From positions 1 to 60,974 of IMG/VR virus record IMGVR_UViG_3300042922_000258: a stretch of 60,974 nt of DNA; one strand, 5' to 3'. Source of the DNA: a virus. Lineage: Duplodnaviria > Caudoviricetes. A program made the position numbers and the translations under genes. The notes under the pieces are model-generated. The model had not been told where the DNA came from. It saw only the letters and a list, made by a program, of their open reading frames with translations, and ran no database searches. Shown in pieces: positions 1 through 60,456 of this stretch (positions are counted from its first letter, which is position 1; every line of letters starts with the position of its first letter).

Positions 1-126
1 AATAGGCGGTGAGAACCCCATGATAAATACATCAAATGAATATAAACAAGTCATCCTGGGTGACAATAGAAAGTTTTACGGCGGCGCAACAATTACTTTG
101 CTTGACGGCACGATTTTGACTTTGGA
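1..126 (+). repeat. Terminal overlap of a circular assembly (1-126 = 60838-60963)
   Basis: Identical sequence aataggcggtgagaacccc...gattttgactttgga at both ends. The final 11 nt (ccaaagtcaaa) are the reverse complement of the preceding tttgactttgg, i.e. a fold-back artefact. Confidence 0.95.
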
Positions 127-2245
127 TAACACCAAGATAACATCTATAAAAATTGATGATGCAACTTCGCAAAGCGGACAGTTTTCCATTGGCTCCGCAA
201 TCATAAATAGGTTAACTCTCGCCATCAATAATATGGATGACGAATATTCGGATTATGATTTTACCGATGCAGTTATCCGCCCTACAATTGGACTTCAGTT
301 GTCTTCTACTATTGAAACATTGCAAAAAGGAGTTTTCACAGCGGACGACCCAAAGGTTATCGGCTCCAGGATAAATATATCAGCTAGGGACAATATGAGT
401 AAATTTGATAAACCTTTCAAAGATGTTGTTCAAGCGTTTCCGTGTACGGCTCAAATATTACTGTCAAGCGTGTGCTTGCATTGTGGGGTTGTATTGGCGA
501 CTAATACATTCTTGAATAGTGGATTTGTTATTTCAGAAAGACCCTTGGATGATGCAATTAATTGTCGAGAGATTATCTCTTGGATAGCTCAACTCAGTGG
601 AAATTTTGCAAGATGCAATACTTCTGGCGCACTAGAATTAAAATGGTATGACTTTGAAGTGTTTGAATTGCCCAGTGCTGACGGCGGAAGGTTCGACTCA
701 GCTACGCCTTATGCAAGTGGCGATTCAGTGGATGGCGGAAATTTCACAAACTACAATTTGGGCGATACCCTTGACGGCGGTTCTTTTGTTGATACTAAAC
801 GATACCATCATATATTCCGAACATTCGGAAGTTCCACAATCTCAACTGATGATGTTGTAATCACAGGAATATCGGTCACGGAAAGCGCAGAAACCCCAAC
901 AACGGCTTTATTTGGTTCAAATGGTTATGCTATCGCCTTAGAAGGAAACAAGCTTATTCAGACACCTACGCAAGCGCAAGCCATAGCTAATTCAGTCGGC
1001 GCAAAGATAGTTGGAATGAGATTTCGACCATTGAGCATTTCAGCTTTAAGTGACCCATCAAGAGAAGCCGGGGATGTTGCTTATGTATCTGATAGAAAAG
1101 GAAATTCTTATCAGATTATCCTATCTAATGTAAATTTCGGAACACGTCAACACGACAGGATTTCTTCCGATGCAGAGCCGCCGTCAAGGAATTCAGCCAC
1201 TAGGTATTCGGCTGATAGTAAGGTTGTCATTGAGGGTAGAAAATATACGCAAGATAAAATCACAGCGTACGACTTAATGGTTCAACAACTCAATAATCTT
1301 GTAGCTCATTCGTTCGGGGTTTATAAGACCGACGTTGTTCTTCCAGATGGTTCAACTGTTTATTATATGCATGACAAGCCTACGCTTGCGGAGTCAATGA
1401 AAATCTGGAAACAGACCGCCGATGCTTTTGCGGTCAGCACCGATGGTGGAGTTACCTATACTGCCGGATTTGATGTAAATGGTAACGCAGTATTCAATGT
1501 GTTGTCGGCAATCGGGATAAATGCTGATTGGATTAGGCTTGGAAAACTGCTGTCAAATGATGGTGCGGTTTTAATTGATATGGATTATGGTGTTGCGAAC
1601 TCGGATAATTTTAGCTTCATTGATAATATCCAAGATGGATTTCCTTTGACTATGCCTTTCAATATAGATGATAGTGTTTCAAAAATCAACAAAGTACTTT
1701 TGAAATATACGCAACAAAAATTCCGAACATATTCGACCACTGCGGAAAGCGGAGGCGACTCCACATCAACAAGTACCAGTGGTGGCGGTGTCACCGTGTC
1801 AAGTTTAAGTGGAGGTGGAGGTCTTTATACCTCTACCGATATAGACGAAGGAAGTGCCTTCACAAAGTCTACATGGGATGCAAATGGTTTGGATGGTCAG
1901 CATACACATCAATTTTCTGTAAGTATTGAAGAATTACAGCACAGCCATTTAATTAATTTAAATAGTCATACACATAACGTTGTAATTCAGGACCATAGTC
2001 ACGATGTTGACATCCCTAGCCATATACACAATTTAGACTTCGGCATCATGGAGACTCCAATCACCGAAAACGAAATTCAAGTCTATGTTGATGAAACTCT
2101 TCGTTCGACAGTAACTTCCTTGCAGGGAATTATTGACTTGACGGCATGGGTTGCAACAACTGGATGGCATACAATCGAATTGAGAAGCACCGCATTAAAA
2201 CGAATATCAGCACAAATTAATATAAAGTCATACATAAGAAATTAG
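20..2245 (+). CDS. Tail tip/baseplate hub (Tal-like) protein with C-terminal HxH metal-binding fibre repeats
   Basis: Follows Dit across the circular junction; 741 aa; DGGxF x3; C-terminal HTH/HSH/HTH/HSH/HIH tripeptides typical of metal-bound trimeric fibre tips. Confidence 0.75.
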   Translation: MINTSNEYKQVILGDNRKFYGGATITLLDGTILTLDNTKITSIKIDDATSQSGQFSIGSAIINRLTLAINNMDDEYSDYDFTDAVIRPTIGLQLSSTIETLQKGVFTADDPKVIGSRINISARDNMSKFDKPFKDVVQAFPCTAQILLSSVCLHCGVVLATNTFLNSGFVISERPLDDAINCREIISWIAQLSGNFARCNTSGALELKWYDFEVFELPSADGGRFDSATPYASGDSVDGGNFTNYNLGDTLDGGSFVDTKRYHHIFRTFGSSTISTDDVVITGISVTESAETPTTALFGSNGYAIALEGNKLIQTPTQAQAIANSVGAKIVGMRFRPLSISALSDPSREAGDVAYVSDRKGNSYQIILSNVNFGTRQHDRISSDAEPPSRNSATRYSADSKVVIEGRKYTQDKITAYDLMVQQLNNLVAHSFGVYKTDVVLPDGSTVYYMHDKPTLAESMKIWKQTADAFAVSTDGGVTYTAGFDVNGNAVFNVLSAIGINADWIRLGKLLSNDGAVLIDMDYGVANSDNFSFIDNIQDGFPLTMPFNIDDSVSKINKVLLKYTQQKFRTYSTTAESGGDSTSTSTSGGGVTVSSLSGGGGLYTSTDIDEGSAFTKSTWDANGLDGQHTHQFSVSIEELQHSHLINLNSHTHNVVIQDHSHDVDIPSHIHNLDFGIMETPITENEIQVYVDETLRSTVTSLQGIIDLTAWVATTGWHTIELRSTALKRISAQINIKSYIRN

Positions 2246-2256: not shown

Positions 2257-3969
2257 ATGGCAATTAGAGTAAGACGTGGAAATAAAATAGATTTCGACCC
2301 GAATAAATTACTTTCAGGCGAACCCTCGGCACCGCTTGACAGCAAAGAACTTTTTATTGCATTTGGACCTGGCGATGTAAAAAAAATAGCCACCTACGAG
2401 GACATGGTCACTAATATTGAAAACGCCACCACTGAAATCATAGCTGATTTTACTTCCGGTGCCAATGCATCCGCGAACGTTATCGATGGTGTTCTTGATG
2501 GCATTAATCATTTAATTGATGATGTATCCAGTAAATACTACAAAATGGGGTCTGCAAATGGTGAACTATATCTTGAAGAAATTGCTCCTGACCCAACACC
2601 TCCAGTCTCTGAAACTATTTTAGATGATGTTGGAGGATTGCGAGGTAGAATTGACGGTATTGATCTACAACTTGACATTGTTGAGAACAAAAGCGCAATT
2701 GACGTGTATAGCTATGGCGATGAAACAACAATAGACTGGAAAAATGCTATTGCTTTGGCTGCGACAGCAGCGGCAAACAATGGGGTTAATGCCATAAAAT
2801 TTAGAAAAGGAATTTTTCGTACATCGGAAGATTTACCCGAAGATGTGCATGTTTTTGGCGCTGGTATGGGTGAAACATATATCGATTTCGATATAACAAG
2901 TGGTAACGCTATTAGACTAAAAAGATATAATGTACGGCCAATCAAGATTTATGATTTGACGCTTCGAAATTTAAATCCTACTAATGACGTTGGCGGAATT
3001 TATGTATCCAATGACGATATATACTGGGGTACTGGAGCGGATGTGCGAAATGTTGAGTTAATCAATTTTAAAACTTTTGCAATAAAATTGAGAGGTGCTT
3101 ATAACGCAATTTTCGATCATGTAACAACATACAACGATCCTATAAACGGTTTATATATAAATACAATATTAGATATTGGTGGTATAGATACTAGTAGCTT
3201 TTCAAATCAAATAATGTTCAATCAGTGTGTTTTTCATCGTGGTCACATAGCTTATAAAAATAATAGGGGCAGTGGAATTACGTTTAACATTTGTACATTT
3301 GAAGATTTAGATTTGTTAGGAAATATAGAAAGTATTGATGTATCTCCTTGGACTTTCTTTATAGGGTGCCATTTAGAAAAAGTTAGAAAAGTATTTGTTA
3401 ATGCAAAAATGGATGAAGTAACTCTTTTGCCAATTCTGCCTTTGACTAATCACGCTTCGATGGGATTTATCAAAATGCAAGATTGTTTACCTATTGCCTT
3501 TGTTCCTGAATATGCTTTTGATAGTACGGTTGAACCAATAAATTATAAATATTTTACATATGATAAAGGTCTTTCTTTTGATGTATCTGGTACATTCACA
3601 CCAGAATGTTCTGCTACTCTTGTATCGGGAACGTTTTCTTATACTTTTCGCGTTGGCAACTATAGACGGTTAGGTGACAGAATAGATTTTGATATAAAAA
3701 TTGTTGTTGGTACAATGACTGGGGCAGAGGGTAGATTACAAATTACGGGCTTGCCGTTTGTTTCGAATGGAGAATATTTTGTATCAGTAACATCAAGTGG
3801 GTTAACATGGAATGGCACTATGCCTATTGGAATTGTTCAACACGATACGAATACTGTTAATATTTACGGTTCTTCTTCAAATGAAATATTTAACAGCGCA
3901 GATGCTTCAACATTTGGTGCAGGAGATATTATTTATGTTTATGGAAACTATAAAACTTATTCAAATTAA
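2257..3969 (+). CDS. Tailspike/receptor-binding protein with pectate-lyase-like beta-helix
   Basis: N-terminal MAIRVRRG...GEP tail-fibre attachment motif; AIKFRKGIFRT / VFGAGMGET beta-helix start; RBS ggaggt. Confidence 0.7.
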   Translation: MAIRVRRGNKIDFDPNKLLSGEPSAPLDSKELFIAFGPGDVKKIATYEDMVTNIENATTEIIADFTSGANASANVIDGVLDGINHLIDDVSSKYYKMGSANGELYLEEIAPDPTPPVSETILDDVGGLRGRIDGIDLQLDIVENKSAIDVYSYGDETTIDWKNAIALAATAAANNGVNAIKFRKGIFRTSEDLPEDVHVFGAGMGETYIDFDITSGNAIRLKRYNVRPIKIYDLTLRNLNPTNDVGGIYVSNDDIYWGTGADVRNVELINFKTFAIKLRGAYNAIFDHVTTYNDPINGLYINTILDIGGIDTSSFSNQIMFNQCVFHRGHIAYKNNRGSGITFNICTFEDLDLLGNIESIDVSPWTFFIGCHLEKVRKVFVNAKMDEVTLLPILPLTNHASMGFIKMQDCLPIAFVPEYAFDSTVEPINYKYFTYDKGLSFDVSGTFTPECSATLVSGTFSYTFRVGNYRRLGDRIDFDIKIVVGTMTGAEGRLQITGLPFVSNGEYFVSVTSSGLTWNGTMPIGIVQHDTNTVNIYGSSSNEIFNSADASTFGAGDIIYVYGNYKTYSN

Positions 3970-3997
3970 CACCAATTATTGACAGTATTATACATAT

Positions 3998-4714
3998 ATG
4001 TTAAAGTATTCTATGGAGGTGGTACAATTGTCTTTAATTTCAAAAGGTAAAAGTTTTATAGGTAAACATCCTTTTATTACTGGAGTTGTAGCAACGATTT
4101 TTAATAGAACTATTGGATTAAATAAGATTAGAATACACAAAGGTAATTCAATAATTGGCTTAAACCATAGCTTTTTTATTAAAACGAAGTTAAAAATTGT
4201 TGGCACAGGGAATACCATAAGTATTAACAAACTGGGTTATTTGAGAAATTGCTCATTTTATATTCGTGGCAATAACAATAGGATAGCAATCGGGGAGAAA
4301 ATATGTATTATTTCAGGTGATATTTACATCGAAGATAATAACAATGAAATAATTATCGGTGACTCTACTGCTATTTGTGGCTATACACACATTGCTGCTA
4401 CTGAAGGTAAAAAAGTCGTCATTGGTAGTGATTGTTTATTTTCATCCGACGTGACTATACGTACAGGTGACAGTCATTCAATAGTTGATAACGAAGGTAA
4501 AAGAATAAATCAAGCGAAAGATGTACTTATTGGTGATCGTGTTTGGATAGGAAATAAGGCTATAATATTAAAGGGTTCAGTTGTTCAATCTAATTGTATT
4601 ATAGGTTCTGGGTCCGTGGTCACTAAGGCTTTTGAAAAAAGCAACATTACCATAGCAGGGAACCCAGCTAGAGTTATTAAAGAAAATATAAACTGGCTCG
4701 TTAAGAGAATATAA
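3998..4714 (+). CDS. Hexapeptide-repeat (left-handed beta-helix) O-acetyltransferase, moron
   Basis: IGSDCLFSSDVTIRTGDSH, IGDRVWIG, IGSGSVVTK, IAGNPARVIK motifs; AT-rich; start may be the ATG at 4013. Confidence 0.9.
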   Translation: MLKYSMEVVQLSLISKGKSFIGKHPFITGVVATIFNRTIGLNKIRIHKGNSIIGLNHSFFIKTKLKIVGTGNTISINKLGYLRNCSFYIRGNNNRIAIGEKICIISGDIYIEDNNNEIIIGDSTAICGYTHIAATEGKKVVIGSDCLFSSDVTIRTGDSHSIVDNEGKRINQAKDVLIGDRVWIGNKAIILKGSVVQSNCIIGSGSVVTKAFEKSNITIAGNPARVIKENINWLVKRI

Positions 4715-4752
4715 GAATCACAACGTTATTCATTGCGGAGGCGATTTAAAAC

Positions 4753-4923
4753 ATGTCAAAATCCGAATACAAGGAAGAACAAATCAAATTTTTAAATAAA
4801 CAATTATTGGAAGTATGTATTAAGATTGGAAATTCAAAGTACGCTAAAGAATATAAGATGCTCAAGCAATTACAGGCGCAATATAAAAAGCTAATTGAAT
4901 ACTATTCAAGTGAAGATTTATAA
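4753..4923 (+). CDS. Small hypothetical protein (56 aa, MSKSEYKEEQ...)
   Basis: RBS ggaggcg, open frame, followed by a terminator. Confidence 0.5.
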   Translation: MSKSEYKEEQIKFLNKQLLEVCIKIGNSKYAKEYKMLKQLQAQYKKLIEYYSSEDL

Positions 4924-4936
4924 TATCGATACATGG

Positions 4937-5017
4937 TGAGCCAAGGACTTCAATCCTATGGCTCACTTTTTTAATAAAGAAACCCCTCAAAACCGTAAAG
5001 GCTAATGAGGGGTTATT
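4937..5017. terminator. Two adjacent hairpins terminating convergent genes
   Basis: gtgagcca...tggctcac followed by a T-run, and aacccctca...tgaggggtt. Confidence 0.7.
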
Positions 5018-5038
5018 TGTTTGTGTAATACGAATTAT

Positions 5039-5389
5039 TTATCTATTGTTTTTTGCAAATGAATATCCGGTATTGCCATCATTCGTGATTAATTCGAAGT
5101 TGAAGCAATCCAAATCATTTGAAGTCATCAACTCATTTAGTTTATCACTTTTAAGAAATCCGATAGCCAATTTATTGATTTCAGCAAAATCAGCATCATC
5201 ACATGTAATATTAATTTCAATTGCGTTATCGTGAATTTCATAACCACTAATATAATCAAACTCTGTTTCTTGAATAGATAATTCATTTATGAAATCATTT
5301 ATTGCTTGAACGTTCGCTACTTCTTGACGTTCGCCAAACATTGTAAACACCATTATCAACATAAATATACTTTTCATAAGAACCTCCAA
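5039..5389 (-). CDS. Small secreted/membrane-anchored acidic protein (moron)
   Basis: Hydrophobic N-terminus (MKSIFMLIMVFTMFG); opposite strand inside the tail operon; RBS ggagg. Confidence 0.6.
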   Translation of the reverse strand: MEVLMKSIFMLIMVFTMFGERQEVANVQAINDFINELSIQETEFDYISGYEIHDNAIEINITCDDADFAEINKLAIGFLKSDKLNELMTSNDLDCFNFELITNDGNTGYSFAKNNR

Positions 5390-5528
5390 TTGGAAACTAT
5401 TGCTAATAATTTGAATTATAATTCCAATAACATATTTTGTAAATAGTATTTACGAAATAATATAGTTTATTCTGAAAATTACAATTATGTGTGACTTTTT
5501 TACAGTAAAACAGAAAGAAGGTGAAGCC

Positions 5529-6029
5529 ATGCAATTAGAATTTATAATAAGCGGTCAAACATTAGAAAGAAAGCCGTCAGACAAACAAATTCCCGTCTCG
5601 AATTCACGCGGATACCTCAAAGCGCATTTTGCATTGACAGCAGAATTTAAAGGGTTGGTGTCTGCTTATTTTAAGATATATAAAAATGGGATTCCTTCTG
5701 GCGTCCCTGTGCCGCTTGATGATAATTTTATTTGCCAAATACCGGACGGAGTAATCACAGAAGATATGCTTTATGTATCGTTGTCATGTACAGACGGAAC
5801 ATTATTTATACCGACCAATGACGTGCTTGTTAATTTAAGCAAAAGCGGAATTCCAACTGCTCTTCTTCCCGAGCCAGACAACACCATAAATGAATATGAT
5901 AGTTTTCAGACAATGTACCAAGAAGTCAAAACGGAAGCAGATAAAATTAATCTAACCGATGATGTGACAAGCCTTAATTACAAAATTGGAATATCCAACG
6001 GTACAATATTCTTAGAAGAGGTGAATTAG
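5529..6029 (+). CDS. Baseplate/fibre adaptor (BppU-like N-terminal domain)
   Basis: RBS gaaggtga; MQLEFIISGQTLER...YLKAHF pattern; abuts the next fibre gene. Confidence 0.55.
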   Translation: MQLEFIISGQTLERKPSDKQIPVSNSRGYLKAHFALTAEFKGLVSAYFKIYKNGIPSGVPVPLDDNFICQIPDGVITEDMLYVSLSCTDGTLFIPTNDVLVNLSKSGIPTALLPEPDNTINEYDSFQTMYQEVKTEADKINLTDDVTSLNYKIGISNGTIFLEEVN

Positions 6030-7691
6030 ATGGCAGCAGGAGATAAAATATCAATAGCAACAAAAGCGTCGGTTGACGCATTGAGAACCGTTGTGCAAGA
6101 TGCGGTTGACGGAAGTATCCAAGCGGTTTTGGATAGCGAATTAGTAGCAACTGATATCGCCAATAAACTGATTGCGAAGGAACAAGAGTATGCTCCTAGG
6201 TTGACAGGTGTTGAGTCGGGATTGGCTTCAATTGCGACTGAAGTTGATACTATTGTAACGGGATTAGACAACTACTATGTGAAGTGCCTCAACACTGACA
6301 CAGGAGCCTTATTGGTTGTTGCAAGCGGAGCAATTGCAGGACAAATTAATCTATCGGCTGTATCTCCGAGAATGTCAACATATACACCTGTAGTCGGCGA
6401 TTATGTAACTAAGGCAAGCAATATATTGAATGCAGAATTGATACTTGCCAGAAATTCAGCAATAAAATCTAAAGTGTTTGGTTCTGTAGATGCGAGGCTA
6501 GAGGAAGCTGAAGCCGAAATATTGGTAAATACAACAAATATAACTAACAAGGTTGACCTCGCCATAGTCGATACCAAAACAGGCGTATCTATTCAATCTG
6601 CGGTATCCGATGATCTAATTGGAGGCGTAGAGCTTACCAAAATAGAAGGCGCAACATTAATTGCTAAACCTAATGAGAGTGCAGATATTAGTCCGGATAA
6701 TGTGGCTGTGATTACATTTTCGAGTAATTTTGATTTAGTGGCTTGCGCGAAGAATATATTAAGCGGCATGAGATCCGGTACCTATAATCCAACTACTGGG
6801 GCATACGAAAGCAATGCATCGTTAATATGTTCACAAAATATGATGCCAATTGGAAATTATGTAGCAGTAACAGTTTCAGTATCGAAAGTAGGCGCAGGTA
6901 CCAATAATATGATAGTGGCATGCTATGGCTCTAATAAAAATTATTTAGGACGAGTTATAAGCACAACTGGATGGTATGCGTTAAAGAAGCACACGTTTAA
7001 TCTGCTGCAAGGTACTGTATATATTAACCTATATGTCACAATTGATACAGTACCATTATCAGCATTAGTTCAAGTTGAATTAGGGTTTACAGCTACAATC
7101 TACGAACAATACAAATCTAATAAGATTAGCATACCATATGAACTTGCTAAACTTCCCAGTGGATTAGCCGACACAATCGAATTGGGTGTGGATGGTAAAT
7201 GGAAAAAGATACAGAGAATAGGCAAGCGGATATTAAATAGTTCGGAGGCGTGGGGAAATCAAGTGTCTGTTTTAACAAATACGTCTTTGTTTGAATGCGC
7301 TGCTAGCTTTGGTGTAAAAGCATCAGGAAGTAACAATGTCGATTTAGTATGTGATAAATTTTTACCTTTGTCTAGTTACGCAATTGACACGCAATCAATA
7401 TATACAAATCCAAGCGGTCTTTTTAGAATAAGAATAAATAAATCTTTGGCCGCTGACCCTACAGCATTTAAATCATGGCTTGCGACTAATCCAGTAACGG
7501 TGTATTACGAACTTGCAACGCCCATTGAAACCATCATATCGGATCAAACCATTGCATCGTATAAAGGAGTAACAAACATATACACCACGGCCAATCCACC
7601 CGTAACGGTGACGTCAAGGTTTAAATCCAGGCTGAGAAATGTTTATGAATTATTAGCTGCCGCAATAATTAGAATGGGAGGTACTATTTAA
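6030..7691 (+). CDS. Tail fibre/receptor-binding protein
   Basis: QVELGFTATIYEQY and WLATNPVTVYYELATP motifs common in Firmicute phage fibres; position in the tail module. Confidence 0.75.
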   Translation: MAAGDKISIATKASVDALRTVVQDAVDGSIQAVLDSELVATDIANKLIAKEQEYAPRLTGVESGLASIATEVDTIVTGLDNYYVKCLNTDTGALLVVASGAIAGQINLSAVSPRMSTYTPVVGDYVTKASNILNAELILARNSAIKSKVFGSVDARLEEAEAEILVNTTNITNKVDLAIVDTKTGVSIQSAVSDDLIGGVELTKIEGATLIAKPNESADISPDNVAVITFSSNFDLVACAKNILSGMRSGTYNPTTGAYESNASLICSQNMMPIGNYVAVTVSVSKVGAGTNNMIVACYGSNKNYLGRVISTTGWYALKKHTFNLLQGTVYINLYVTIDTVPLSALVQVELGFTATIYEQYKSNKISIPYELAKLPSGLADTIELGVDGKWKKIQRIGKRILNSSEAWGNQVSVLTNTSLFECAASFGVKASGSNNVDLVCDKFLPLSSYAIDTQSIYTNPSGLFRIRINKSLAADPTAFKSWLATNPVTVYYELATPIETIISDQTIASYKGVTNIYTTANPPVTVTSRFKSRLRNVYELLAAAIIRMGGTI

Positions 7692-7900
7692 TGTTTGATA
7701 TAAGAGAATTTATTAAAACCAATTTAATTCAAGGAGTTAAGAACGGAAGTTTTACAAGAGAATATGCCAATATTTTAGGCGTAAATTATCTTACCAAGGG
7801 GTTGGTGGCAAATGAAGATTTAGTGGAAATTGATTTAGCAACCGCGCCAGAACCGATTGAAACACTCACGGAAGAAATTCCAGAGGAAGTTATAGTTTAA
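7691..7900 (+). CDS. Small fibre-associated (chaperone-like) protein
   Basis: Translationally coupled (TAATG) to the fibre gene; 69 aa, acidic tail. Confidence 0.55.
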   Translation: MFDIREFIKTNLIQGVKNGSFTREYANILGVNYLTKGLVANEDLVEIDLATAPEPIETLTEEIPEEVIV

Positions 7901-8120
7901 TTCGCAATTGGACAATAAAGCGACAAAAATAATGTAAATAATTTGAATAAAACACTTGTAATCTTGTCTCATAATGGTATAATATGGCTACAACCATAAA
8001 AAGAAGAGGTAGGCTCTTCCCTGCGAAAGTTGTAGCCTACCTCACCATTATGACACTAGGTGCCATGGGGACATTATACACCCTCTGTGCATTTAGTGCA
8101 AGAAGGAGAGTGTATTTTTT

Positions 8121-9137
8121 ATGCCCAATTTGAGCCAAGAGATCGCAATTAACATCATCAACGAGGTAATAAAGATAGTACCGTATTTCGATGTTGATAT
8201 TCAACAGCAAGTCAAACTGAGAGATAAAATTGAAGAGCAATTAAATGATTATGAAGTTACAAGCAAATGTACAGCACTTGCAAGATGTGATATTTTGGAT
8301 AAGGCTTTTATCTATCTTGCATGTAAAAAGCTTGAAGGAATGAAAGAAACAACTCGGTACAATTATACTTTATTACTTAAGAGATTGGACGGGCATTTCA
8401 ATAAACCAATATCCACCATTACCACAATGGATTTGCGAATGTTTCTAGCAAGTGAATACAAAGATAATCAACCGAATAGTTTAAATAGCAAAATAAGCTT
8501 ATTGAAGGCTTTCTTTATTTGGCTACAAGACGAAGGGTATATAGTACAAAATCCCACCAAGAACTTACAACAAGCTAAGGAACCATACCGCAGACGAGGT
8601 CATGTAACACCAATTGATGTCGAAAAGATGCGTGAAGAATGCAAGAGTGTTCGAGATAAGGCATTATTTGAAATCTTACTGTCAACCGGATGCCGCGTAT
8701 CTGAGATTACTAATGCAACACTAGACAAGATAGATTGGCAGAATAACAGCATTGAAGTTATTGGCAAGGGTGATAAGGAACGAATGGTTTATTTCAGCAC
8801 CAGAGCGCGCTTGTTTCTGATTAATTACATATCGGATCGCGAAAAGTCCGGCATACTTAGCAACAGCTTATTTGCAGCAAGCAAGAAGCCGTATTTAAAG
8901 CTAGGGCGCAGAAGTATTGAGCGTATTATAGGCGATATAGCCGAGAGAGCCGGAATTTCATATAGCGTTTTTCCGCATTTAATGAGGCATACGTTTGCAA
9001 CAACCGGTGTCAATCAAGATGTTCCAGTACATATCTTGCAAAAATTAATGGGACATTCAAGTCCTGGAGTTACCGAGAAATATTATGATTTAAACGATAA
9101 TAACATAAAGCAAGAATATAGGAAAATAGCACTTTAA
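8121..9137 (+). CDS. XerC/D-like tyrosine recombinase (second recombinase, in the tail module)
   Basis: TGCRVSE, GKGDKER, HLMRHTFAT, LMGH, TEKYY catalytic set; N-terminal SAM-like domain; own TGnTATAAT promoter near 7975-7983. Confidence 0.92.
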   Translation: MPNLSQEIAINIINEVIKIVPYFDVDIQQQVKLRDKIEEQLNDYEVTSKCTALARCDILDKAFIYLACKKLEGMKETTRYNYTLLLKRLDGHFNKPISTITTMDLRMFLASEYKDNQPNSLNSKISLLKAFFIWLQDEGYIVQNPTKNLQQAKEPYRRRGHVTPIDVEKMREECKSVRDKALFEILLSTGCRVSEITNATLDKIDWQNNSIEVIGKGDKERMVYFSTRARLFLINYISDREKSGILSNSLFAASKKPYLKLGRRSIERIIGDIAERAGISYSVFPHLMRHTFATTGVNQDVPVHILQKLMGHSSPGVTEKYYDLNDNNIKQEYRKIAL

Positions 9138-9144
9138 AATTATG

Positions 9145-9177
9145 GAGTCGGGAGTTAAAACCTCTCGGCTCTTTTTA
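9145..9177 (+). terminator. Rho-independent terminator after the recombinase
   Basis: gagtcgggag...ctctcggctc followed by ttttt. Confidence 0.75.
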
Positions 9178-9289
9178 TATATTTAAATACTACCAAGATA
9201 TTCATTGACAGCAATCTCTTACACCTGGTCGACTTGCTTAATAACAAAACTGCAGTAATATAAAAAATACCGAAAGAAGGAACTCATAC

Positions 9290-9598: not shown

Positions 9599-9774
9599 AA
9601 GAAAAATTAGCGAAGTTGATTAATGTTAAGAGCCTAGTAACACTCATATTGACGGCGGTTTTTAGTTTTCTAGCTGTCAAAGGAGAAATTTCCGGTCAAG
9701 AGTTTATCGGGATATTTACAATGATAATTGCTTTTTATTTTGGTACTCAATCTGTTAAAAAAGAAGGTGAATAA
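9595..9774 (+). CDS. Small two-TM holin (59 aa; not in the ORF track)
   Basis: MKEKLAKLINVKSLVTLILTAVFSFLAVKGEISGQEFIGIFTMIIAFYFGTQSVKKEGE; lies between the holin and the endolysin. Confidence 0.8.
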   Translation: MKEKLAKLINVKSLVTLILTAVFSFLAVKGEISGQEFIGIFTMIIAFYFGTQSVKKEGE

Positions 9775-9776: not shown

Positions 9777-10463
9777 ATGGCTAGAGACATGACAAAGCTG
9801 CATCCAAAGGTTCAAGACCTTGCTGTCAAGCTAGTTGCTGAATGTGAGAAAATCGGATTACATATCAAAATTACTGATTGTGTTCGTTCCAAGGAAGAGC
9901 AAAACGGAATTAACGCAAGCCGTACGAATTGTAAGTTCCCATCATCTTATCATAATTGGGGATTGGCTTTTGATTTCTGCCGATACGAAGACGTTGATAA
10001 AGATGGAAAGATTTCCGATGATGCTTATAACGATAAGGGAGATTTCTTCCGTAAAGTTGGGCAAGTTGGAAAATCCATTGGGTTAGGTTGGGGTGGAGAT
10101 TTTAAGAGTCTTTACGATGGTCCGCATATGGAATATAAGGGATTGGGAACTCGCTCTCAAATTGAAGCAAAATATAGAACACCTGAAAACTTCTTTAGGT
10201 CATTCGCAATGGCTAAGCCAACAAAGACTATCACAAAGGATTCTCCCGAAGAGGAAATCAGATGGCTTCAACACAATCTCAACCAAGCCATGCAAGACTA
10301 TTCTGACTACAATCCAATTAAAGAGGATGGAAAATATGGCGGTCAATCTAAAAAGGCTGTACGGTCATTCTGGACGCTTCAGGGATGGAATAGGCTTGGA
10401 TTAGATAAAGGTGATAGGTGCGGAATGAAAACCATTAATCGCCTTGACAGCATCACTAAATAA
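9777..10463 (+). CDS. Endolysin, M15 family L-Ala-D-Glu peptidase with C-terminal PG-binding region
   Basis: RSKEEQ, SYHNWGLAFD, WGGDF, DGPHME motifs. Confidence 0.9.
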   Translation: MARDMTKLHPKVQDLAVKLVAECEKIGLHIKITDCVRSKEEQNGINASRTNCKFPSSYHNWGLAFDFCRYEDVDKDGKISDDAYNDKGDFFRKVGQVGKSIGLGWGGDFKSLYDGPHMEYKGLGTRSQIEAKYRTPENFFRSFAMAKPTKTITKDSPEEEIRWLQHNLNQAMQDYSDYNPIKEDGKYGGQSKKAVRSFWTLQGWNRLGLDKGDRCGMKTINRLDSITK

Positions 10464-11045: not shown

Positions 11046-11056
11046 GGCAAATTAAA

Positions 11057-11305: not shown

Positions 11306-11337
11306 ATTTTCCTTTCCGCTGTTATCAGATAATCAAA

Positions 11338-49247: not shown

Positions 49248-49410
49248 TTCATAACTCATTATGTTACTCTAGTATTAGAGGAAGTGTCGAATGGCATAAC
49301 TCTATCGAATAAGCCACCCTCATTCTTATTCTCCTTTACATATTTGACCGCCTACCGTTCCTCCCCCTTTCGGTATGGCGGTCATTTTGTTGTGAAAGAT
49401 AGGTGATTAC

Positions 49411-51154: not shown

Positions 51155-51748
51155 ATGAGCAGAACTGAAGCTAAACAGCTTTTAATAACATTTGGAATTG
51201 AAACTCCAACCGAAGAGCAGATAACAAATTATCTTAATTCCGTGAACGGTGAAGTACAAAAAGAAAAAGTTAAAGCAGATACGCAAAAAGCAGAACTCGA
51301 CCGATTGAAAAAAGTCGAAGAGGAACTCGAAGCGGAGAAAAACAAAAACCTTACTGCGGAAGAAAAAGTTCAAAAAGCTTTGGCTGATGCAGAAAAGGCA
51401 AAAGCCGATTATGCAAAAAACTCCAATAAATTATCGGTTGAAAAAATCCTTATTGGTGCCGGACTTGCAGAGGAAGATTACAAAGAATTCATTGACGGCA
51501 TTGTAAGTGACAACGCCGAGTTATCAACAAAGTTAGCAACCAGTCTTGCTGCGACAATGACCAAACAGAAGGACACTGCAATCCAAAAGACAAAAGAAGA
51601 ATTACTCGATAAGACGCCTACTCCCGGCGGTGGAAGGGGAGCCGACGGAAAAGAAAAAACCGAAGCCGAAAAAATCGCAGAGGGAATCGCAAAAGCCACC
51701 GTTGACAATCAAAAAGCAACTAATGACGTTTTAGCAAATTATCTATAG
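51155..51748 (+). CDS. Capsid scaffolding protein
   Basis: Charged coiled coil, TPTPGGG, upstream of the capsid genes. Confidence 0.8.
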   Translation: MSRTEAKQLLITFGIETPTEEQITNYLNSVNGEVQKEKVKADTQKAELDRLKKVEEELEAEKNKNLTAEEKVQKALADAEKAKADYAKNSNKLSVEKILIGAGLAEEDYKEFIDGIVSDNAELSTKLATSLAATMTKQKDTAIQKTKEELLDKTPTPGGGRGADGKEKTEAEKIAEGIAKATVDNQKATNDVLANYL

Positions 51749-51761: not shown

Positions 51762-52100
51762 ATGAATTTTAGTTCAAAAGTAGTTACAACTCAAAAAGAA
51801 ATTTTCAAGAGAAAAACAGAAGGTGATTGGACGAAAGAAATCACGCTAGATTTTACTGCGGTTGTCGCCAATGCTGATGGTCAGTATATCGTTAAGGCCG
51901 GCTCACCAATCAACGCAGTTGGAGTTGTCGACAATGCAACAGCACCGGTCGGAATTTTACTTTCTGACGTTTATAAAGATAGACCAGTTGGCACTATCGT
52001 TACTCACGGAATTGTAAATCTTGCGAATTGCAATAGTAACAGCGGTTTAACGATTGCGGCTGCAGTCAAAACAGCATTACCGCTGATCTCATTTGAATAA
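51762..52100 (+). CDS. Head decoration protein
   Basis: IVKAGSPI...GILLSDV; between scaffold and capsid. Confidence 0.75.
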   Translation: MNFSSKVVTTQKEIFKRKTEGDWTKEITLDFTAVVANADGQYIVKAGSPINAVGVVDNATAPVGILLSDVYKDRPVGTIVTHGIVNLANCNSNSGLTIAAAVKTALPLISFE

Positions 52101-53847: not shown

Positions 53848-54222
53848 ATGCGTTCGTTAGATATTAATAAACAAACAATTTATTATGCTCTCTATGGTGC
53901 CAAGGTTCCAATCCTAGACGATGAAGGGTGGGAAACCGGAGAATTTACCATTGGGTATGGAAATCCCGTTAAATTCAAAATTAGAGTGTCCCCGTGTAGA
54001 GGTGAAGCGACCGACCAAGTCTTTGGGAGGTCTCTTGATTATGATAGGACGCTGTCAACCTCGGATAAGAAGTTTCCAATTGACGAATATTCAATGTTAT
54101 TCATTGACCGCAGTCCTGTTCTTAAAACTGATGGAACCACCGACACAAAACCAGATTATAAGGTTGTGGGAGTTTCTAAGGATTTGAATGAATGGATGTT
54201 TGCGATTAAGAAGGTGAGTTAA
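53848..54222 (+). CDS. Head closure/stopper protein
   Basis: Position, and DDEGWETGE...YGNP motif. Confidence 0.7.
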   Translation: MRSLDINKQTIYYALYGAKVPILDDEGWETGEFTIGYGNPVKFKIRVSPCRGEATDQVFGRSLDYDRTLSTSDKKFPIDEYSMLFIDRSPVLKTDGTTDTKPDYKVVGVSKDLNEWMFAIKKVS

Positions 54223-55208: not shown

Positions 55209-55595
55209 ATGATTGATAAATCAAATATGTTCTATACGCTAGTAAAAAACGCAATCGGCACAACGTTCCTAAAAGATGCAAGCCAAACTTATCAATCGAC
55301 CCCTCCCGCTTTTCCGTCTATGTTTTTTAATCAAATCGACAACTCTTCCACTGCTGACGATCTCGACAACACTGAGAATGCCGTCAATACAACAATTGAA
55401 ATTACAATCTATACCAATGACACCGCCAAACTAACAACCGCTAAGAAAATTCATGCACTTGCCGATATACAAATGCGGTCAATGGGATTTAGACGAACAT
55501 TCGGGCCCCAACAAATCACCAATATAACAGATACATCTATCTGCCGAGTAATCGCAAGATACACAAGGATTATAGGCAGTGGAGATAATTTTTAA
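55209..55595 (+). CDS. Tail terminator protein
   Basis: FP...F, EI.IY, M..MGFRR, R.IARY; position. Confidence 0.75.
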   Translation: MIDKSNMFYTLVKNAIGTTFLKDASQTYQSTPPAFPSMFFNQIDNSSTADDLDNTENAVNTTIEITIYTNDTAKLTTAKKIHALADIQMRSMGFRRTFGPQQITNITDTSICRVIARYTRIIGSGDNF

Positions 55596-55699
55596 TACGG
55601 ATGCAAACGAATGCCTTGACAGCATTCTTTTTTATTTCAACCACTAACCAAGCACTCATAGTAGTGCTTATTTTTATGCAATTTGAAAGGAGCAACATT

Positions 55700-56119
55700 A
55701 TGCAAGCAATTTCAAGCTATAACGCGAAACTTATGCACGATACAGGAGTTCCAGCAACCCCAACATGGGTACAGCTACTTCCAGTTAAAACTACCCCTCA
55801 AATCGGTGGCGCACGTGAAGTTCTTCCGACCACAACGCTTGATGATGATATGGATACTGGCATTAATGGTATTCAAGCATCGGAACCCATGAACTTTGTA
55901 GCTAATTACGACGACACAAAATATGACGAATTAAAGTTGCTTGAAAACAAAACCGAGAAGTATGCGGTTTGGTTCGGCAATGATGGACTTGGCACCGCCG
56001 GAAAGTATAAATTCGATGGTCAGCTTTCTGTATTTATCAATGAAACCGCAGTTAATGGTGTTGTAGAAATGACAGTTAACATTGTTCCGTCGACACCCGT
56101 TGTAAAAGACGTAGCTTAA
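55700..56119 (+). CDS. Major tail (tube) protein
   Basis: P.IGG.RE...TTLDD, F.ANY, F.G.LSV; RBS gaaaggag. Confidence 0.85.
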   Translation: MQAISSYNAKLMHDTGVPATPTWVQLLPVKTTPQIGGAREVLPTTTLDDDMDTGINGIQASEPMNFVANYDDTKYDELKLLENKTEKYAVWFGNDGLGTAGKYKFDGQLSVFINETAVNGVVEMTVNIVPSTPVVKDVA

Positions 56120-56916: not shown

Positions 56917-59900
56917 ATGGCAGATAATACGATGGATAGGCTCGAAATTGAAGTCCAAGCACAAGCATCAAAAGCAAACGCCGAATTAGAGAAATTAGTT
57001 GGCAAGCTCGAAAGAGTATCAGGGTCTTTATCAAAAATTAATGCGTCCGGATTGCAAGGGTTAGCTAATGGCGTCCAGAAATTATCCATATCAATGCAAG
57101 GTATGAGCAATGTCAAAACCGCAGACTTTTCAAGGCTCGCTAAGAATATTGAAAAACTCGGAAGCATCGACCAAGCCAAAATCAACGGAACAGCCTCGGC
57201 ACTCAGAACAATATCCTCTGTATTGACAGCAAGCACTGGATTTACAAGCGGCGCAACACAAATAACTGAGTTGGCCAACAGTATTTCAAGGCTAGGTTAT
57301 AAATCTGCTTCTACGGCTATCACCAATATCCCATTGATGGCGAATGCTCTTCGTGGACTCATGCAAACCCTCGCGACTTCTCCAAACGTATCAAAGAACT
57401 TAATTGATATGACAAATGCCTTGGCTAATTTATCAAATCAAGGTTCAAAGGTGCGAAGCGCAACCAATAGCATTAATGGGTCACTAAAAAAATATTCTTC
57501 ATCCGCCAAGCAAGCCTCTGCCAACACAAGAAACTTTTCATTATCTCTTGCCGGGTTGTACGCAAAGTTATGGTTAGTAAGGCGCGCGATAGGTTTATTG
57601 TCGGGCTCGATTAAAAAGTCTATGGACTTTGGCGAAACAATCAACTTATTTCAGACGTCTTTCAAGAAAATCGGCGTAGATACAGCTACCGACCTTGGAA
57701 TGGAAATGGGTTCGGCGGCCTCAGAAGAATTTGCAAAGGGATTTATAGATAGAGCCAAAGCCTTTAATGAGAAGATTACCGATGCTCTTAGCCTTGATCC
57801 GGAAATGATGATGAAATATCAAGCGGTGTTTGCTCAAATGTCAAATTCGATGGGATTGACAGCGGAATCCGCCATGAATGTTTCGGAGTCACTTACTTTA
57901 CTTGGAAACGACATTGCATCATTGTGGAATATTGACACGGCGGATGCAATGACTAAGCTGCAAAGCGGTCTAGCCGGACAAATACGACCATTGCGTGAAT
58001 TAGGTGTTGATATCTCCAAGACTTCACTTGAAATGTATGCTTTAAAATACGGAATAAAAGATTCCGTTGAGAACATGAGTCAGGCAGCCAAGGTTCAATT
58101 AAGATGGTTGGCTATCATGGAACAGACCGAGGTTGCGTTCGGGGACATGGCAAAAACAATCGACTCTCCGGCAAACCAATTAAGGATCCTTTCTCAACAA
58201 TGGACTAATCTAACTCGTTCAATCGGTAATGTATTTCTACCTATCGTTACAACTGTTCTTCCATACATAAACGCCTTGGTTATTGCGCTCCGCAGAATGG
58301 TGGATACTCTCGCCACTGCGATGGGTTTTGAACTCCCTGATTATACCGACACAAATATTTACACCGATGTTACTGGTGATATTGAGGGTATTGGTGATGG
58401 TGCAGATGAAACCAAGGACTCCGTTGACAGCTTAAAGAAATCTCTTATGAGTTTTGACAGTCTAAATATTCTATCTAAGGGAAAAACCAAAGGCATCGGC
58501 CTTGATGTCGGGTCTGGATATGGAGAATTAGACGATGCTATCAATGAGAAAACCGCTTCCTATATGGCAAAGTTCAATGAAGAGTTGGAAAAAATGAGCA
58601 ATAAAGCGGATACTCTCGCTGACGGCATTGAGAGATTTTTTAGCTTAGTTGGAGATAAAGTTCGCCCAACAACTGAAGCATTCAAAACGCTATGGAATGA
58701 AGGCTTGTCAAAGCTAGGCGGTTTTGTTGGTGATAACCTAGTTAGCTTTTACAAGAACTTCCTATCTCCGGTCGGCACATGGACGCTGGGAGTAGGATTA
58801 CCGAGCCTATTTGAAACAGCCAACAACCTTTTGAACGATATAGATTGGAAAACACTTAATCAATCATTTACAAATTTATATAAAGCACTTTCGCCTTTTG
58901 CGATTTCAATTGGGACTGGACTAATTAATTTTGTAGATGGGTTGGTTGATATTTTAACCCCAGCGGTAAAACTTACCGTTGATGGTTTTTCTAAGGCGCT
59001 GAACGGACTTGCGACAATTATCTCATTGATACCGGAAAGCACGGCCATTGCAATTGGTGGTGCCATCGGAGGAATCGCTACAGCATTCTTGATTTTTGCA
59101 GGAGCTGATTTAGTAGCTGGAATCATCCTAAAGATTAGCGGTGCTATAAAAACCATGTTAGCAACTCTTACGGCACATCCACTGCTATTATTAGCCGGAG
59201 GTTTAGCGGCTATCGCCGGAGCAGCCATTGCATTAGAAAAAGCCAGATTTGATGCTTCAAGTGTTGGTAAATACGTTGACAAAGTTGACTCACTTGTTGA
59301 GGCTTCCAAGGACTTAAACGACGAAATCGCAACATTGCTTAAAAACCAGAAAGAACGGACTACCGGAATTGAAAATGAGTACGGTGCGATTAAAATTCTA
59401 GCTGATAAATATTTTGATTTGGCAGACCAGACAAGCCTAACCAACGACGAACAACTCCTAATGAAGGCGTACGCCGATGAATTAATCGGTGCCGTTCCAG
59501 AATTATCAAGTTTAATCGACGAGCAAACAGGCGCATATAAGGGAACCAAGGATGAAATCGAAGCCTTAATCACAAAAACAAAAGAATACTATTTAGTTCA
59601 AGCGGCGCAAGAAAGCTTAATAGAAATTGCAAAAGCTCAGTATAAAGCAGAAAAGGATTTAAAAGACCTCGAAGAGGAGCGCAAGACTGCGGTTGAATTA
59701 CTTGCGGACAAACAAGCAGAATACAACGACACTATTGGCGTCGGAAACACTAATCTTCATACTGCAAGCGAAGAGCAAAAAGAAGCGGCTAAAAAATCCA
59801 ACGAATTAAGGACTGAAATATCCGCTCTTGAAGGTACAGTTGATAGCCTTGATACTCAAATAAATACAACAACCGGTTCTCAACAAGATTTAAATAATGA

Positions 59901-60456
59901 ATGGGATTATGCCACCGATTATATTACTACGTATTCAGATACGGCAAAAAAAGAAATGCCAAAAGTAGTAACGGCGGTAAATGACGCTTATTCCGAAATT
60001 GATAAAGCGGTTAAGGATTGGAAGCTTCCTGATTTAGTGGCAGCGGTCAAGGTAGACACGAGCGCGCTAACTGAGTTTATGAAGTCACAAACCGGAAGTA
60101 ATATTATCGATTACTCGATGAATAAGTACAAACCCAAGAAATATGCAACTGGCGGTTTTCCTAACACCGGAGAAGCATTTATTGCTCGTGAAAATGGCAT
60201 CCCCGAAATGGTTGGCAAGTGGGGTAATCGCACGGCGGTTGCTAATAATGACCAAATAAGAGGCGGTATTGCTGATGCTGTCAAAGGAGCTTTAATTGAG
60301 GTTTTGGTTCCGGTCATAGGTCAAATAGGCGGCTCAAGAAATAATCCAACCATCGAAGTTCCGCTTTACCTAGACGGCGAAGAATTGGCTAGAGGTATTT
60401 ACAATGGGCAACAGAGTTACGAGGGAAGAATGAACCCTGTCAAAGTAGGAGGTTGA
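56917..60456 (+). CDS. Tape measure protein
   Basis: 1179 aa, Ala/Leu-rich helical, hydrophobic central segment, C-terminal YATGG...GE...PE.V and LDGEEL motifs. Confidence 0.93.
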   Translation: MADNTMDRLEIEVQAQASKANAELEKLVGKLERVSGSLSKINASGLQGLANGVQKLSISMQGMSNVKTADFSRLAKNIEKLGSIDQAKINGTASALRTISSVLTASTGFTSGATQITELANSISRLGYKSASTAITNIPLMANALRGLMQTLATSPNVSKNLIDMTNALANLSNQGSKVRSATNSINGSLKKYSSSAKQASANTRNFSLSLAGLYAKLWLVRRAIGLLSGSIKKSMDFGETINLFQTSFKKIGVDTATDLGMEMGSAASEEFAKGFIDRAKAFNEKITDALSLDPEMMMKYQAVFAQMSNSMGLTAESAMNVSESLTLLGNDIASLWNIDTADAMTKLQSGLAGQIRPLRELGVDISKTSLEMYALKYGIKDSVENMSQAAKVQLRWLAIMEQTEVAFGDMAKTIDSPANQLRILSQQWTNLTRSIGNVFLPIVTTVLPYINALVIALRRMVDTLATAMGFELPDYTDTNIYTDVTGDIEGIGDGADETKDSVDSLKKSLMSFDSLNILSKGKTKGIGLDVGSGYGELDDAINEKTASYMAKFNEELEKMSNKADTLADGIERFFSLVGDKVRPTTEAFKTLWNEGLSKLGGFVGDNLVSFYKNFLSPVGTWTLGVGLPSLFETANNLLNDIDWKTLNQSFTNLYKALSPFAISIGTGLINFVDGLVDILTPAVKLTVDGFSKALNGLATIISLIPESTAIAIGGAIGGIATAFLIFAGADLVAGIILKISGAIKTMLATLTAHPLLLLAGGLAAIAGAAIALEKARFDASSVGKYVDKVDSLVEASKDLNDEIATLLKNQKERTTGIENEYGAIKILADKYFDLADQTSLTNDEQLLMKAYADELIGAVPELSSLIDEQTGAYKGTKDEIEALITKTKEYYLVQAAQESLIEIAKAQYKAEKDLKDLEEERKTAVELLADKQAEYNDTIGVGNTNLHTASEEQKEAAKKSNELRTEISALEGTVDSLDTQINTTTGSQQDLNNEWDYATDYITTYSDTAKKEMPKVVTAVNDAYSEIDKAVKDWKLPDLVAAVKVDTSALTEFMKSQTGSNIIDYSMNKYKPKKYATGGFPNTGEAFIARENGIPEMVGKWGNRTAVANNDQIRGGIADAVKGALIEVLVPVIGQIGGSRNNPTIEVPLYLDGEELARGIYNGQQSYEGRMNPVKVGG

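Follow-up and report, generated by a model that had tools for sequence, protein, structure and literature searches.

A short word selected at the DNA level and dispersed over a phage genome: a possible Chi-like signal

We analysed a 60,974-base stretch of viral DNA (hereafter the window), which is the whole of virus record IMGVR_UViG_3300042922_000258 (positions 1 to 60,974), and found that it carries 54 exact copies of the 9-mer TTGACNGCA, 31 on the + strand and 23 on the − strand. Dinucleotide shuffles gave a mean of 1.85 copies and at most 5, and none of 100 shuffles reached 54, which amounts to an excess of about 30-fold. The excess is selected at the DNA level, independently of codon use, reading frame and the direction of transcription. 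It is symmetrical between the strands and independent of genes, its sites are gained and lost, and it is limited to three phages with similar tail genes, namely the studied phage and two viral contigs referred to below as G001 and G799. As for its function, the reading with the best support, which we put forward tentatively, is that a helicase-nuclease that processes DNA ends takes the word as a Chi-like signal specific to a host or group.

The word, its copies and selection on DNA

The ends of the record repeat each other (1-137 and 60838-60974; of the last 74 bases compared, 7 differ). Positions 60901-60960 are found again at 64-123, and the 33-nt surroundings of the copies at 102 and 60939 are identical. 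Thus, the record ends overlap, which leaves 53 unique copies in 60.8 kb (0.87 per kb, or one per 1.15 kb), and the record represents a circular or terminally redundant assembly in which one copy of the word was counted twice. An initial annotation, made by eye, had listed 52 copies (30 + and 22 −). Every one of these positions was found again, and the search tool added 25183 (−) and 60939 (+). Its GC estimate of about 36% has to give way to the computed 37.4%.

At each k from 7 to 10, TTGACNGCA is the most over-represented k-mer, and words overlapping it rank next. Its sharply defined part is an octamer core with an internal N, TTGACNGC, which has 76 matches, 75 of them unique (39 + and 36 −; the core was defined on the sequence trimmed of the end overlap). 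Among the 75 copies, the base following the core (position 9) is A in 53, G in 10, T in 7 and C in 5, and the internal N is A in 37, G in 19, C in 16 and T in 3. Variants with a single mismatch in the core are scarce (0-12 each), the two most frequent being C-to-T changes at positions 5 (8 copies) and 8 (12 copies). The flanks of the aligned sites are weakly informative (no G at −5, T at −4, C at −2), with a weak enrichment in T at +12 to +15, counted from where the word starts. They are not conserved, so the copies are not members of a repeat family, and such a family was ruled out as their source. The degenerate word was not found in the literature searched, in keeping with the earlier statement that the motif has no described function.

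The copies and the two longest core-free stretches are given below with coordinates, strand and description; open reading frames are abbreviated as ORFs.

102-110, +, 9-mer, duplicate of 60939 via end overlap
1548-1556, −, 9-mer
2138-2146, +, 9-mer, kept in G799
2336-2344, +, 9-mer
5634-5642, +, 9-mer
9205-9213, +, 9-mer, outside ORFs
9821-9829, −, 9-mer, kept in G001
10444-10452, +, 9-mer, kept in G001
16152-16160, −, 9-mer
17597-17605, +, 9-mer, kept in G001, first of three in 75 nt
17647-17655, +, 9-mer
17662-17670, +, 9-mer
17942-17950, −, 9-mer
18269-18277, +, 9-mer, outside ORFs
19410-19418, −, 9-mer, kept in G001
19659-19667, +, 9-mer, kept in G001
19871-19879, +, 9-mer
20910-20918, −, 9-mer
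21210-21218, +, 9-mer
22456-22464, +, 9-mer, kept in G001
23825-23833, −, 9-mer
25183-25191, −, 9-mer, absent from the earlier list
26084-26092, +, 9-mer, kept in G001
26122-26130, −, 9-mer, kept in G001
26502-26510, +, 9-mer, kept in G001
26832-26840, −, 9-mer
27114-27122, −, 9-mer
27501-27509, +, 9-mer
29353-29361, −, 9-mer
30442-30450, +, 9-mer
31141-31149, −, 9-mer
34794-34802, −, 9-mer
34995-35003, +, 9-mer
36083-36091, +, 9-mer
36500-36508, −, 9-mer
40133-40141, −, 9-mer, outside ORFs
41140-41148, +, 9-mer
41962-41970, −, 9-mer
42947-42955, +, 9-mer, outside ORFs
44203-44211, +, 9-mer, outside ORFs, kept in G001
45686-45694, +, 9-mer
46953-46961, −, 9-mer, kept in G001
47078-47086, +, 9-mer
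50183-50191, −, 9-mer, kept in G001
50686-50694, +, 9-mer, kept in G001
51492-51500, +, 9-mer
52061-52069, −, 9-mer
54104-54112, +, 9-mer, kept in G001
55379-55387, −, 9-mer, kept in G001
55474-55482, −, 9-mer
55616-55624, +, 9-mer, kept in G799, inside ORF 55601-56119
57223-57231, +, 9-mer, kept in G001 and G799
60276-60284, −, 9-mer
60939-60947, +, 9-mer, duplicate of 102 (end overlap)
771-778, +, core TTGACNGC without the final A, kept in G799
1180-1187, −, core only
5551-5558, −, core only
9649-9656, +, core only, kept in G001
9673-9680, −, core only, kept in G001
10339-10346, −, core only, kept in G001
10969-10976, +, core only
20992-20999, −, core only
22293-22300, −, core only, kept in G001
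24842-24849, −, core only
29465-29472, +, core only
30611-30618, −, core only
31409-31416, +, core only
45581-45588, −, core only, kept in G001
46540-46547, +, core only, kept in G001
46915-46922, −, core only, kept in G001
49344-49351, +, core only
50306-50313, −, core only
54051-54058, −, core only
57856-57863, +, core only
58424-58431, +, core only
60043-60050, −, core only
10977-16152, longest core-free stretch, with the ISL3 transposase, a PAPS-reductase-like gene and small ORFs, mostly unshared with G001
36509-40133, core-free stretch, block of a 772-aa protein, unshared with G001

The next-longest core-free stretches are 5634-9205, 31409-34795 and 2336-5551, so that the phage holds blocks of 3-5 kb without any core. 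The motif-poor blocks noted in the initial annotation were found again for the 9-mer, and the core-free stretches also stand with the 8-mer core.

In our own ORF model (greedy calls), 89 ORFs make up 90% of the genome, and 48 of the 54 9-mers lie inside them, in line with the coding fraction. Shuffling synonymous codons within genes left a mean of 10.5 copies (standard deviation 2.0, maximum 16) and permuting codons a mean of 7.7 (standard deviation 1.2) versus the 54 observed; both controls hold fixed the 6 copies outside ORF calls. The core is present in 69 of the 233 places where it could be reached by synonymous changes, versus 10.3 expected from codon usage. Likewise, the word encodes 13 out of the 16 L-T-A tripeptides, though TTG makes up only 19% of leucine codons.

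The 9-mers are spread over the reading frames as follows: 16 in sense frame 1, 11 in sense frame 0 (L-T-A), 9 each in antisense frames 1 and 2, 3 in antisense frame 0 and 6 outside ORFs (in total 27 sense and 21 antisense). Sense frame 2 is empty because the word would place a TGA in frame there. These results bear out the initial annotation, which had proposed a codon-preserving shuffle as a check and had described a selected signal that does not depend on codon use and occurs in many frames, on both strands and in intergenic DNA. The frames, the strands and the intergenic positions 9205 and 42947 stand, but the supposedly intergenic copy at 55616 is inside ORF 55601-56119.

The two orientations alternate above chance, with 36 orientation runs in the studied phage versus 27.1 expected (P = 0.008) and 29 versus 22.0 in G001 (P = 0.019); this run test was post hoc, and the two phages are related and not independent. 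Spacing on each strand is 1.5-2.7 kb (coefficient of variation < 1), and no strand switch or strand bias of the word was seen anywhere along the phage genome. The resemblance to a −35 box (TTGACA) of sigma-70 promoters was also considered and rejected. The 75 aligned sites hold no information at +23 to +29, hence no −10 element, and none was found when each copy outside ORFs was inspected individually.

Relatives with and without the word, and the likely host

Judging from its genes, the studied phage is temperate and has a siphophage-type genome. Its structural genes include an SPP1-like portal, capsid protein E and a large terminase (TerL), and it carries two tyrosine recombinases and one ISL3 transposase. 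Recombination genes comprise a Rad50/SbcC-like ATPase, RecT, SSB, an ERCC4 nuclease and an MBL-fold nuclease. Additionally, there are a Dcm-like methyltransferase, two PAPS-reductase-like proteins, a Lar-like restriction-alleviation protein, a ParM-like protein (35452-36336), a VapE-like protein and several XRE-type helix-turn-helix (HTH) proteins. One tail gene is needed in what follows:

20-2245, fibre-like protein gene

The phage is contained in one public sequencing run, labelled soil metagenome. Its host is probably a Lachnospiraceae-type anaerobe, because portal relatives at 56-63% identity sit in Lachnospiraceae genomes and because homologues of the fibre-like protein bear the source names Herbinix sp. 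(59%), Anaerosporobacter sp. (55%) and Lachnospiraceae bacterium (53%). Other clues to the host gave little: no tRNA was found in the phage that could point to a host or att site, homologues of the ISL3 transposase on plasmids reach at most 35% identity and are uninformative, and named phage and plasmid collections held no close DNA relatives.

The three word-rich phages have tail genes in common and differ in head or replication modules. G001 is a viral contig of 60,460 bases with a portal 92% identical to that of the studied phage, and it carries 43 copies of the word (18 + and 25 −) versus 3 of the reversed word. In the 20.3 kb of DNA that can be aligned between the two (78% identity), 23 of 43 aligned sites kept the core, versus an empirical baseline of 0.239, which is the chance that all seven specified positions are identical (p = 2.7e-5). 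The N base differs in 10 of these 23 cores. The synonymous-position conservation that the initial annotation had proposed to examine is thus found between the relatives. Turnover is also visible in the aligned DNA, with 20 sites present only in the studied phage and 9 only in G001.

Core density is 2.14 per kb in genes common to both phages and 0.74 per kb in the other genes of the studied phage, and its long core-free stretches are blocks that G001 does not share. This supports the earlier idea that the word is thinner in recently acquired DNA. Replication genes differ between the two phages. Searched with tblastn (E <= 1e-5), G001 gave no match to ParM, the Dcm-like protein, both PAPS-reductase-like proteins, VapE, RecT, either integrase or the ISL3 transposase gene. 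Since it keeps 43 copies without them, the excess is independent of these genes.

G799, reached via the fibre-like protein (65% identity), is a 34-kb fragment of a record that is 54% complete. It holds 35 cores (23 + and 12 −) in many frames, versus 1 copy of the control word; the N is G in 28 of the 35, and C stands at −2 in 26. Its tail genes are 50-79% identical to those of the studied phage, while TerL and portal reach only 35% and the major capsid protein has no match. Out of 11 unique aligned sites, 5 kept the core, versus a baseline of 0.111 (p = 0.004). In contigs with less similar fibres the core count drops, to 5 in 10.6 kb at 62% identity, 5 in 39.5 kb at 54-55% and 0 in 14.4 kb at 54%. 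Going by these sequence comparisons, the word tracks genes for host range and not a single phage lineage.

No excess of the word was seen in seven relatives, either phages or prophages. Five complete or near-complete relatives in capsid and portal (G405-G409) hold 5-12 cores each, and a prophage in genome G162 has no core within its span (capsid 71%, TerL 66% and portal 62% identical). None of the other loci examined was enriched either. Searches for closer relatives found at best 63% identity with the portal in metagenome contigs and 49% with the integrase; with the SbcC-like and VapE proteins, viral contigs yielded only G001 or distant matches. Words of their own were sought in the relatives and rejected as counterparts, with TTCCGG (in many capsid relatives) and TCCGGCA (in G405) being only 2-6 fold above background. 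As an observation in its own right, TCCGGCA occurs 35 times (19 + and 16 −) in the 56-kb relative G405 (L145-L147) versus 10-19 times in five other phages, a slight excess of a different asymmetric word.

We also scanned 401 Lachnospiraceae and 401 Clostridia genomes (12 in both lists, about 790 sampled). The 9-mer peaked at 0.10 per kb in the former and 0.16 per kb in the latter versus 0.87 in the phage, in a sample that held no close relative of the host. Within the sampled family, fibre matches reached at best 44% identity; a match of 55% occurs in genome G803, with none among the relatives of G803. No relative of the phage capsid protein was found in the five genomes with the highest counts. 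In the one high-count genome inspected, G605, 35 of 62 sites lie in the x-D-G-x frame, i.e. they are codon-driven. An apparent skew of all sites to the + strand in these scans was an artefact of forward-first listings, and the full list for genome G584 shows mixed strands. As the phage itself holds core-free blocks of 3-5 kb, presumably taken from the local gene pool, the data suggest that the signal is not general to all DNA in the host.

A possible Chi-like signal and competing explanations

For the Chi-like reading we infer a reader protein, a switch in its activity and headful packaging. The word, TTGACNGC(A), would be read on the DNA itself, in either orientation and independently of genes, by an enzyme travelling from a DNA end; candidates are an AddAB/RecBCD-type helicase-nuclease of the host or the phage's own Rad50/Mre11-like pair. 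This enzyme would degrade or resect linear phage DNA up to a word in the correct orientation and there switch to preserving a 3′ tail that feeds recombination. With copies facing both ways every 1-2 kb, injected or replicating DNA would be circularised, repaired and replicated instead of being destroyed. The phage is probably packaged by headful, because it has an SPP1-type portal and overlapping record ends. In such a case any part of the genome could become the left or the right end, which would make two-way copies useful, and the alternating orientations fit a genome whose ends can fall anywhere.

This reading draws support from the precedent of phage P1, selection at the DNA level, conservation of the core around a freely changing N and the lack of a link to transcription. 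Interleaved orientations, the T-rich preference on the 3′ side, the tracking of host-range genes and the presence of Rad50/SbcC-like and Mre11/DP1-like genes also speak for it. In P1 (94.8 kb) the host Chi octamer GCTGGTGG occurs 31 times forward and 19 times in reverse, and the reversed word 0 times and once. A study of P1 and the lambdoid phage LLS (PMC12315714) reports 50 Chi sites in the former and 23 in the latter, about one per 1.9 kb, with Chi as the top octamer and an overlapping octamer second in both. According to the same study, Chi sites come and go as phage modules are shuffled, Chi-rich phages depend on host RecBCD for recombination-dependent growth, and in lambdoid phages abundant Chi accompanies the absence of a recombination module and nuclease inhibitor of their own (PMC12315714).

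Of the systems compared, the word most resembles Chi in P1 and LLS, which is enriched far above chance and above the host. Each is an asymmetric, top-ranked octamer that occurs tens of times, once in every 1-2 kb or so, with most copies within genes. In both cases overlapping words come next in rank and sites are gained and lost, and the use of both strands is a feature common with Chi in P1 (31 and 19). For Chi of E. coli, PMC5041463 reports that nucleotides 4-7 of the 3′ flank modulate cutting, with A or G preferred. All three word-rich phages show a weak T-rich preference 4-7 nt 3′ of the 9-mer, at the same flank positions but with T instead of A or G. Both this preference and the alternating orientations would suit a reader that arrives along the DNA.

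Several points weigh against a Chi-like role. The word differs from Chi of P1 and LLS in its unrelated sequence, its internal N and a density about twice as high, and its sites are not oriented, unlike those of LLS, which are strongly oriented (20 out of 23; PMC12315714). Unlike Chi-rich lambdoid phages, the studied phage carries recombination genes of its own (RecT-like, SSB, ERCC4, MBL-fold and SbcC-like). To our knowledge, the known Chi words are G-rich and rarely have an internal N. The low peak densities in the two sets of 401 genomes, the codon-driven count in G605 and the lack of a word excess in the G162 prophage, which has a member of the same nuclease family (60% identical, see below), point in the same direction. 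Moreover, Chi is defined by an excess in the host core genome with a skew to the leading strand and by the response of the host RecBCD/AddAB enzyme to it in one orientation, and by this definition the word is a candidate at most.

A variant of the Chi-like reading, which we consider quite unlikely, places the whole system in the phage. Here the word would be read as single-stranded DNA by the OB-like central domain of a 428-aa protein acting with the Rad50/SbcC-like ATPase:

44920-46206, +, 428-aa Mre11/SbcD/DP1-like phosphoesterase protein, candidate reader, in all three word-rich phages
25426-27384, −, SbcC/Rad50-like ATPase with a zinc hook, possible partner of the 428-aa nuclease

The phage's own nuclease would spare and recombine word-bearing phage DNA and chew DNA without the word. 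A group of Lachnospiraceae-type phages would in this way possess a private mark of self. The candidate emerged from a screen for proteins present in the studied phage and G001, absent from five word-poor relatives and then sought in G799; it is the only non-structural protein common to the three. Its predicted structure (pLDDT, the predicted local distance difference test, 85) comprises helices at the N-terminus, a central domain rich in beta structure and a phosphoesterase domain, with the best structural matches to the model being DP1 of PolD (an OB-plus-phosphoesterase exonuclease), Mre11 and SbcD. Over 83 residues in its centre, the three phages agree at 72-78% identity, while the N-terminus has been exchanged (14% between the studied phage and G001, 62% between G001 and G799) and the C-terminal domain falls to 30% identity in G799.

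What weighs against a phage-encoded reader is that the nuclease family is widespread (326 matches) and that the 60%-identical copy sits in the word-poor G162 prophage. The N-terminal HTH of the nuclease was rejected as the reading part, as it differs between the studied phage and G001. A general link between the family and dispersed words was also rejected: 23 loci with more distant homologues had no comparable word, their top words being tandem repeats, a 16-base palindrome, tRNA arms or codon words.

The nuclease family provided some side observations. The DP1/Mre11-like protein is a domain mosaic, its three domains having different histories (44920-46206 (+) in the window, L034:4682-5980 (−) and L210:13530-14852 (+)). 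In an unrelated phage contig (L173/L175), a 16-base palindrome (GTGTCTTC followed by its reverse complement) occurs five times in 18 kb, partly in intergenic DNA. In an unrelated phage contig, thirteen 15-base tandem repeats within a gene (L190:4378-4566) gave a false 'dispersed word'.

Apart from Chi-like readings, the word may provide dispersed sites for a phage-encoded binder, such as a silencer of the stoperator or P1-C1 type or a protein acting in nucleoid structure, partition, packaging or condensation; we hold this to be unlikely. The sharp definition and asymmetry of the word would suit a protein that binds as a monomer, and its excess is found in phage DNA and not in the sampled bacterial genomes. 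Additionally, three copies lie within 75 nt of each other inside a small gene common with G001:

17459-17839, −, small HTH plus Cys-rich protein gene, three word copies within 75 nt inside

The family of this protein (25 homologues) has a conserved N-terminal HTH-like segment and six cysteines (CxxCxxC plus three), matched no Pfam family and occurs on phage-sized contigs and one contig with the source name Sedimentibacter sp. Relatives that have the family at 52-62% identity, with a well-conserved HTH region, are nevertheless word-poor (0-5 cores in 11-20 kb), and this protein was rejected as the reader. The word also persists across phages with different early regions.

For stoperators of Cluster A mycobacteriophages, PMC9283540 describes more than 20 copies of a short asymmetric word read by a monomer, placed, for the L5 type, in promoters and short intergenic spaces and oriented with transcription. 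Our word is likewise short, asymmetric and dispersed in more than 20 copies over a temperate phage genome, as are the sites of the L5 repressor gp71; however, it lies mostly in ORFs (48 out of 54 copies) in both orientations (27 sense versus 21 antisense), contrary to stoperator traits, and no well-conserved repressor accompanies it. The phage has XRE-type HTH proteins that could be repressors, but G001 shares these at 27-39% identity at best. We take the L5 consensus, read on the other strand, to share about nine bases with the commonest form of the word. The C1 operators of P1, annotated in its record, and the conserved inverted repeats of phiC31 are also scattered over a phage genome in many sites, but these number under about twenty and overlap promoters, while our word ignores gene boundaries. 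A centromere for ParM/ParR fares no better: parC of the ParMR type consists of clustered repeats adjoining parMR, unlike the dispersed copies here, and the ParM-like protein has no match in G001, which keeps 43 copies.

A drive from the host, similar to that behind uptake sequences, seems to us quite improbable. In this case the host would favour word-bearing DNA in uptake or recombination, and the DNA of a long-resident prophage would drift to the host density of about one copy per kb. Uptake signal sequences (USS) of Pasteurellaceae and DNA uptake sequences (DUS) of Neisseriaceae occur about once per kb, equally on both strands and in many frames, have a sharp core of 9-10 bases with weaker flanks and are rare in recent DNA. 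The word shows much the same: a density of 0.87-1.25 per kb, both orientations equally frequent and gene-independent (31 + and 23 − for the 9-mer, 39 + and 36 − for the core), a sharp core with a weak T-rich flank, use of all permitted frames and absence from blocks unshared with the relative. Its tracking of tail-gene similarity would point to a common host. However, in contrast to USS and DUS, no bacterial genome among about 790 sampled has such a density, the peak being 0.16 per kb, and a phage would not be expected to exceed its host. The large word-free blocks of the phage suggest a recombining DNA pool mostly without the word. We know of no sequence-specific DNA uptake in Firmicutes, which weighs against this drive as well.

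The word could also be a modification mark or a self or decoy signal, acted on by a modifying enzyme or recognised by a defence sensor that leaves word-bearing DNA alone, which we judge very unlikely. Sharp specificity with an internal N resembles the targets of restriction-modification systems, and the phage has the Dcm-like methyltransferase, the two PAPS-reductase-like proteins and the Lar-like protein. Such targets are, however, usually avoided and not accumulated, and G001 has 43 copies yet neither the Dcm-like nor the PAPS-reductase-like genes. In general, our results support the inference of the initial annotation that selection maintains the word as a signal and that newer DNA lacks it, but they give no support to the particular candidates named there (stoperators, a ParM/ParR centromere, and the Dcm-like, PAPS-reductase-like and XRE proteins as drivers).

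Highly improbable, in our view, is that the word serves as a priming site needed every 1-2 kb on both strands in lagging-strand synthesis, by a primase whose stand-alone zinc-ribbon protein would require a long word in the template:

19317-19847, −, stand-alone DnaG-type CHC2 zinc-ribbon protein, candidate reader for priming sites

It has a Pfam match to Zn_ribbon_DnaG (7e-18) and PDB matches to zinc-binding domains of primases, and its counterpart in G001 is 62% identical. The per-strand spacing of 1.5-2.7 kb with its low variation would suit priming, and the reverse complement of the word contains GTC, the trinucleotide that T7 primase recognises. A strand switch or bias, though expected around an origin or with rolling-circle replication, is nevertheless missing, no primase catalytic domain was found beside the CHC2 gene, the replication genes differ between the studied phage and G001, and the protein was not found in the available 34 kb of G799 (record 54% complete). 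The primases we know of read only 3-5 nt.

Finally, that the word has no function and simply reflects the make-up of the genome in codons, dipeptides or bases, or a longer repeat, has a virtually negligible chance of being true: the codon-driven count in G605 is an instance of such an effect, but here the excess survives dinucleotide, codon and synonymous shuffles, occupies 69 of 233 reachable places, uses five frames plus non-coding DNA with unconserved flanks and is missing from seven related phages with similar proteins.

Further observations and significance

A few features of the window stand apart from the word. The heptamer GGCGGTG occurs 19 times versus about 2.6 expected (10 sense, 3 antisense and 6 outside ORFs), among other places at 50842, 53836, 54227, 55195, 44182 and 41250 on the + strand and at 20514 and 40839 on the − strand. 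Several copies lie 8-14 nt ahead of start codons, like an unusual ribosome-binding or coupling signal. An 852-aa protein (27451-30009, −), 33% identical in G001, belongs to no Pfam family, and structure comparisons point to repeated small beta-barrel units (SH3/KOW/tudor-like). The ISL3 transposase gene (12380-13696, +) abuts a PAPS-reductase-like gene (13700-14692, −) whose Pfam match is confined to the first 74 of the profile's 175 positions; a second, more complete copy is found at 18372-19310.

The signal described here is unusually clean, with its roughly 30-fold excess, its use for 13 out of 16 L-T-A tripeptides and an N that drifts freely. Should the word prove to be the Chi of a Lachnospiraceae-type host, this large group of gut and soil anaerobes would have its first such signal, found via a phage that concentrates it. 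If its reader is encoded by the phage, a viral nuclease of the Mre11/Rad50 type would have a private self-recognition signal of a new kind. In both cases, a short word selected on DNA can be recovered from a single phage genome and can group phages by their host or machinery.

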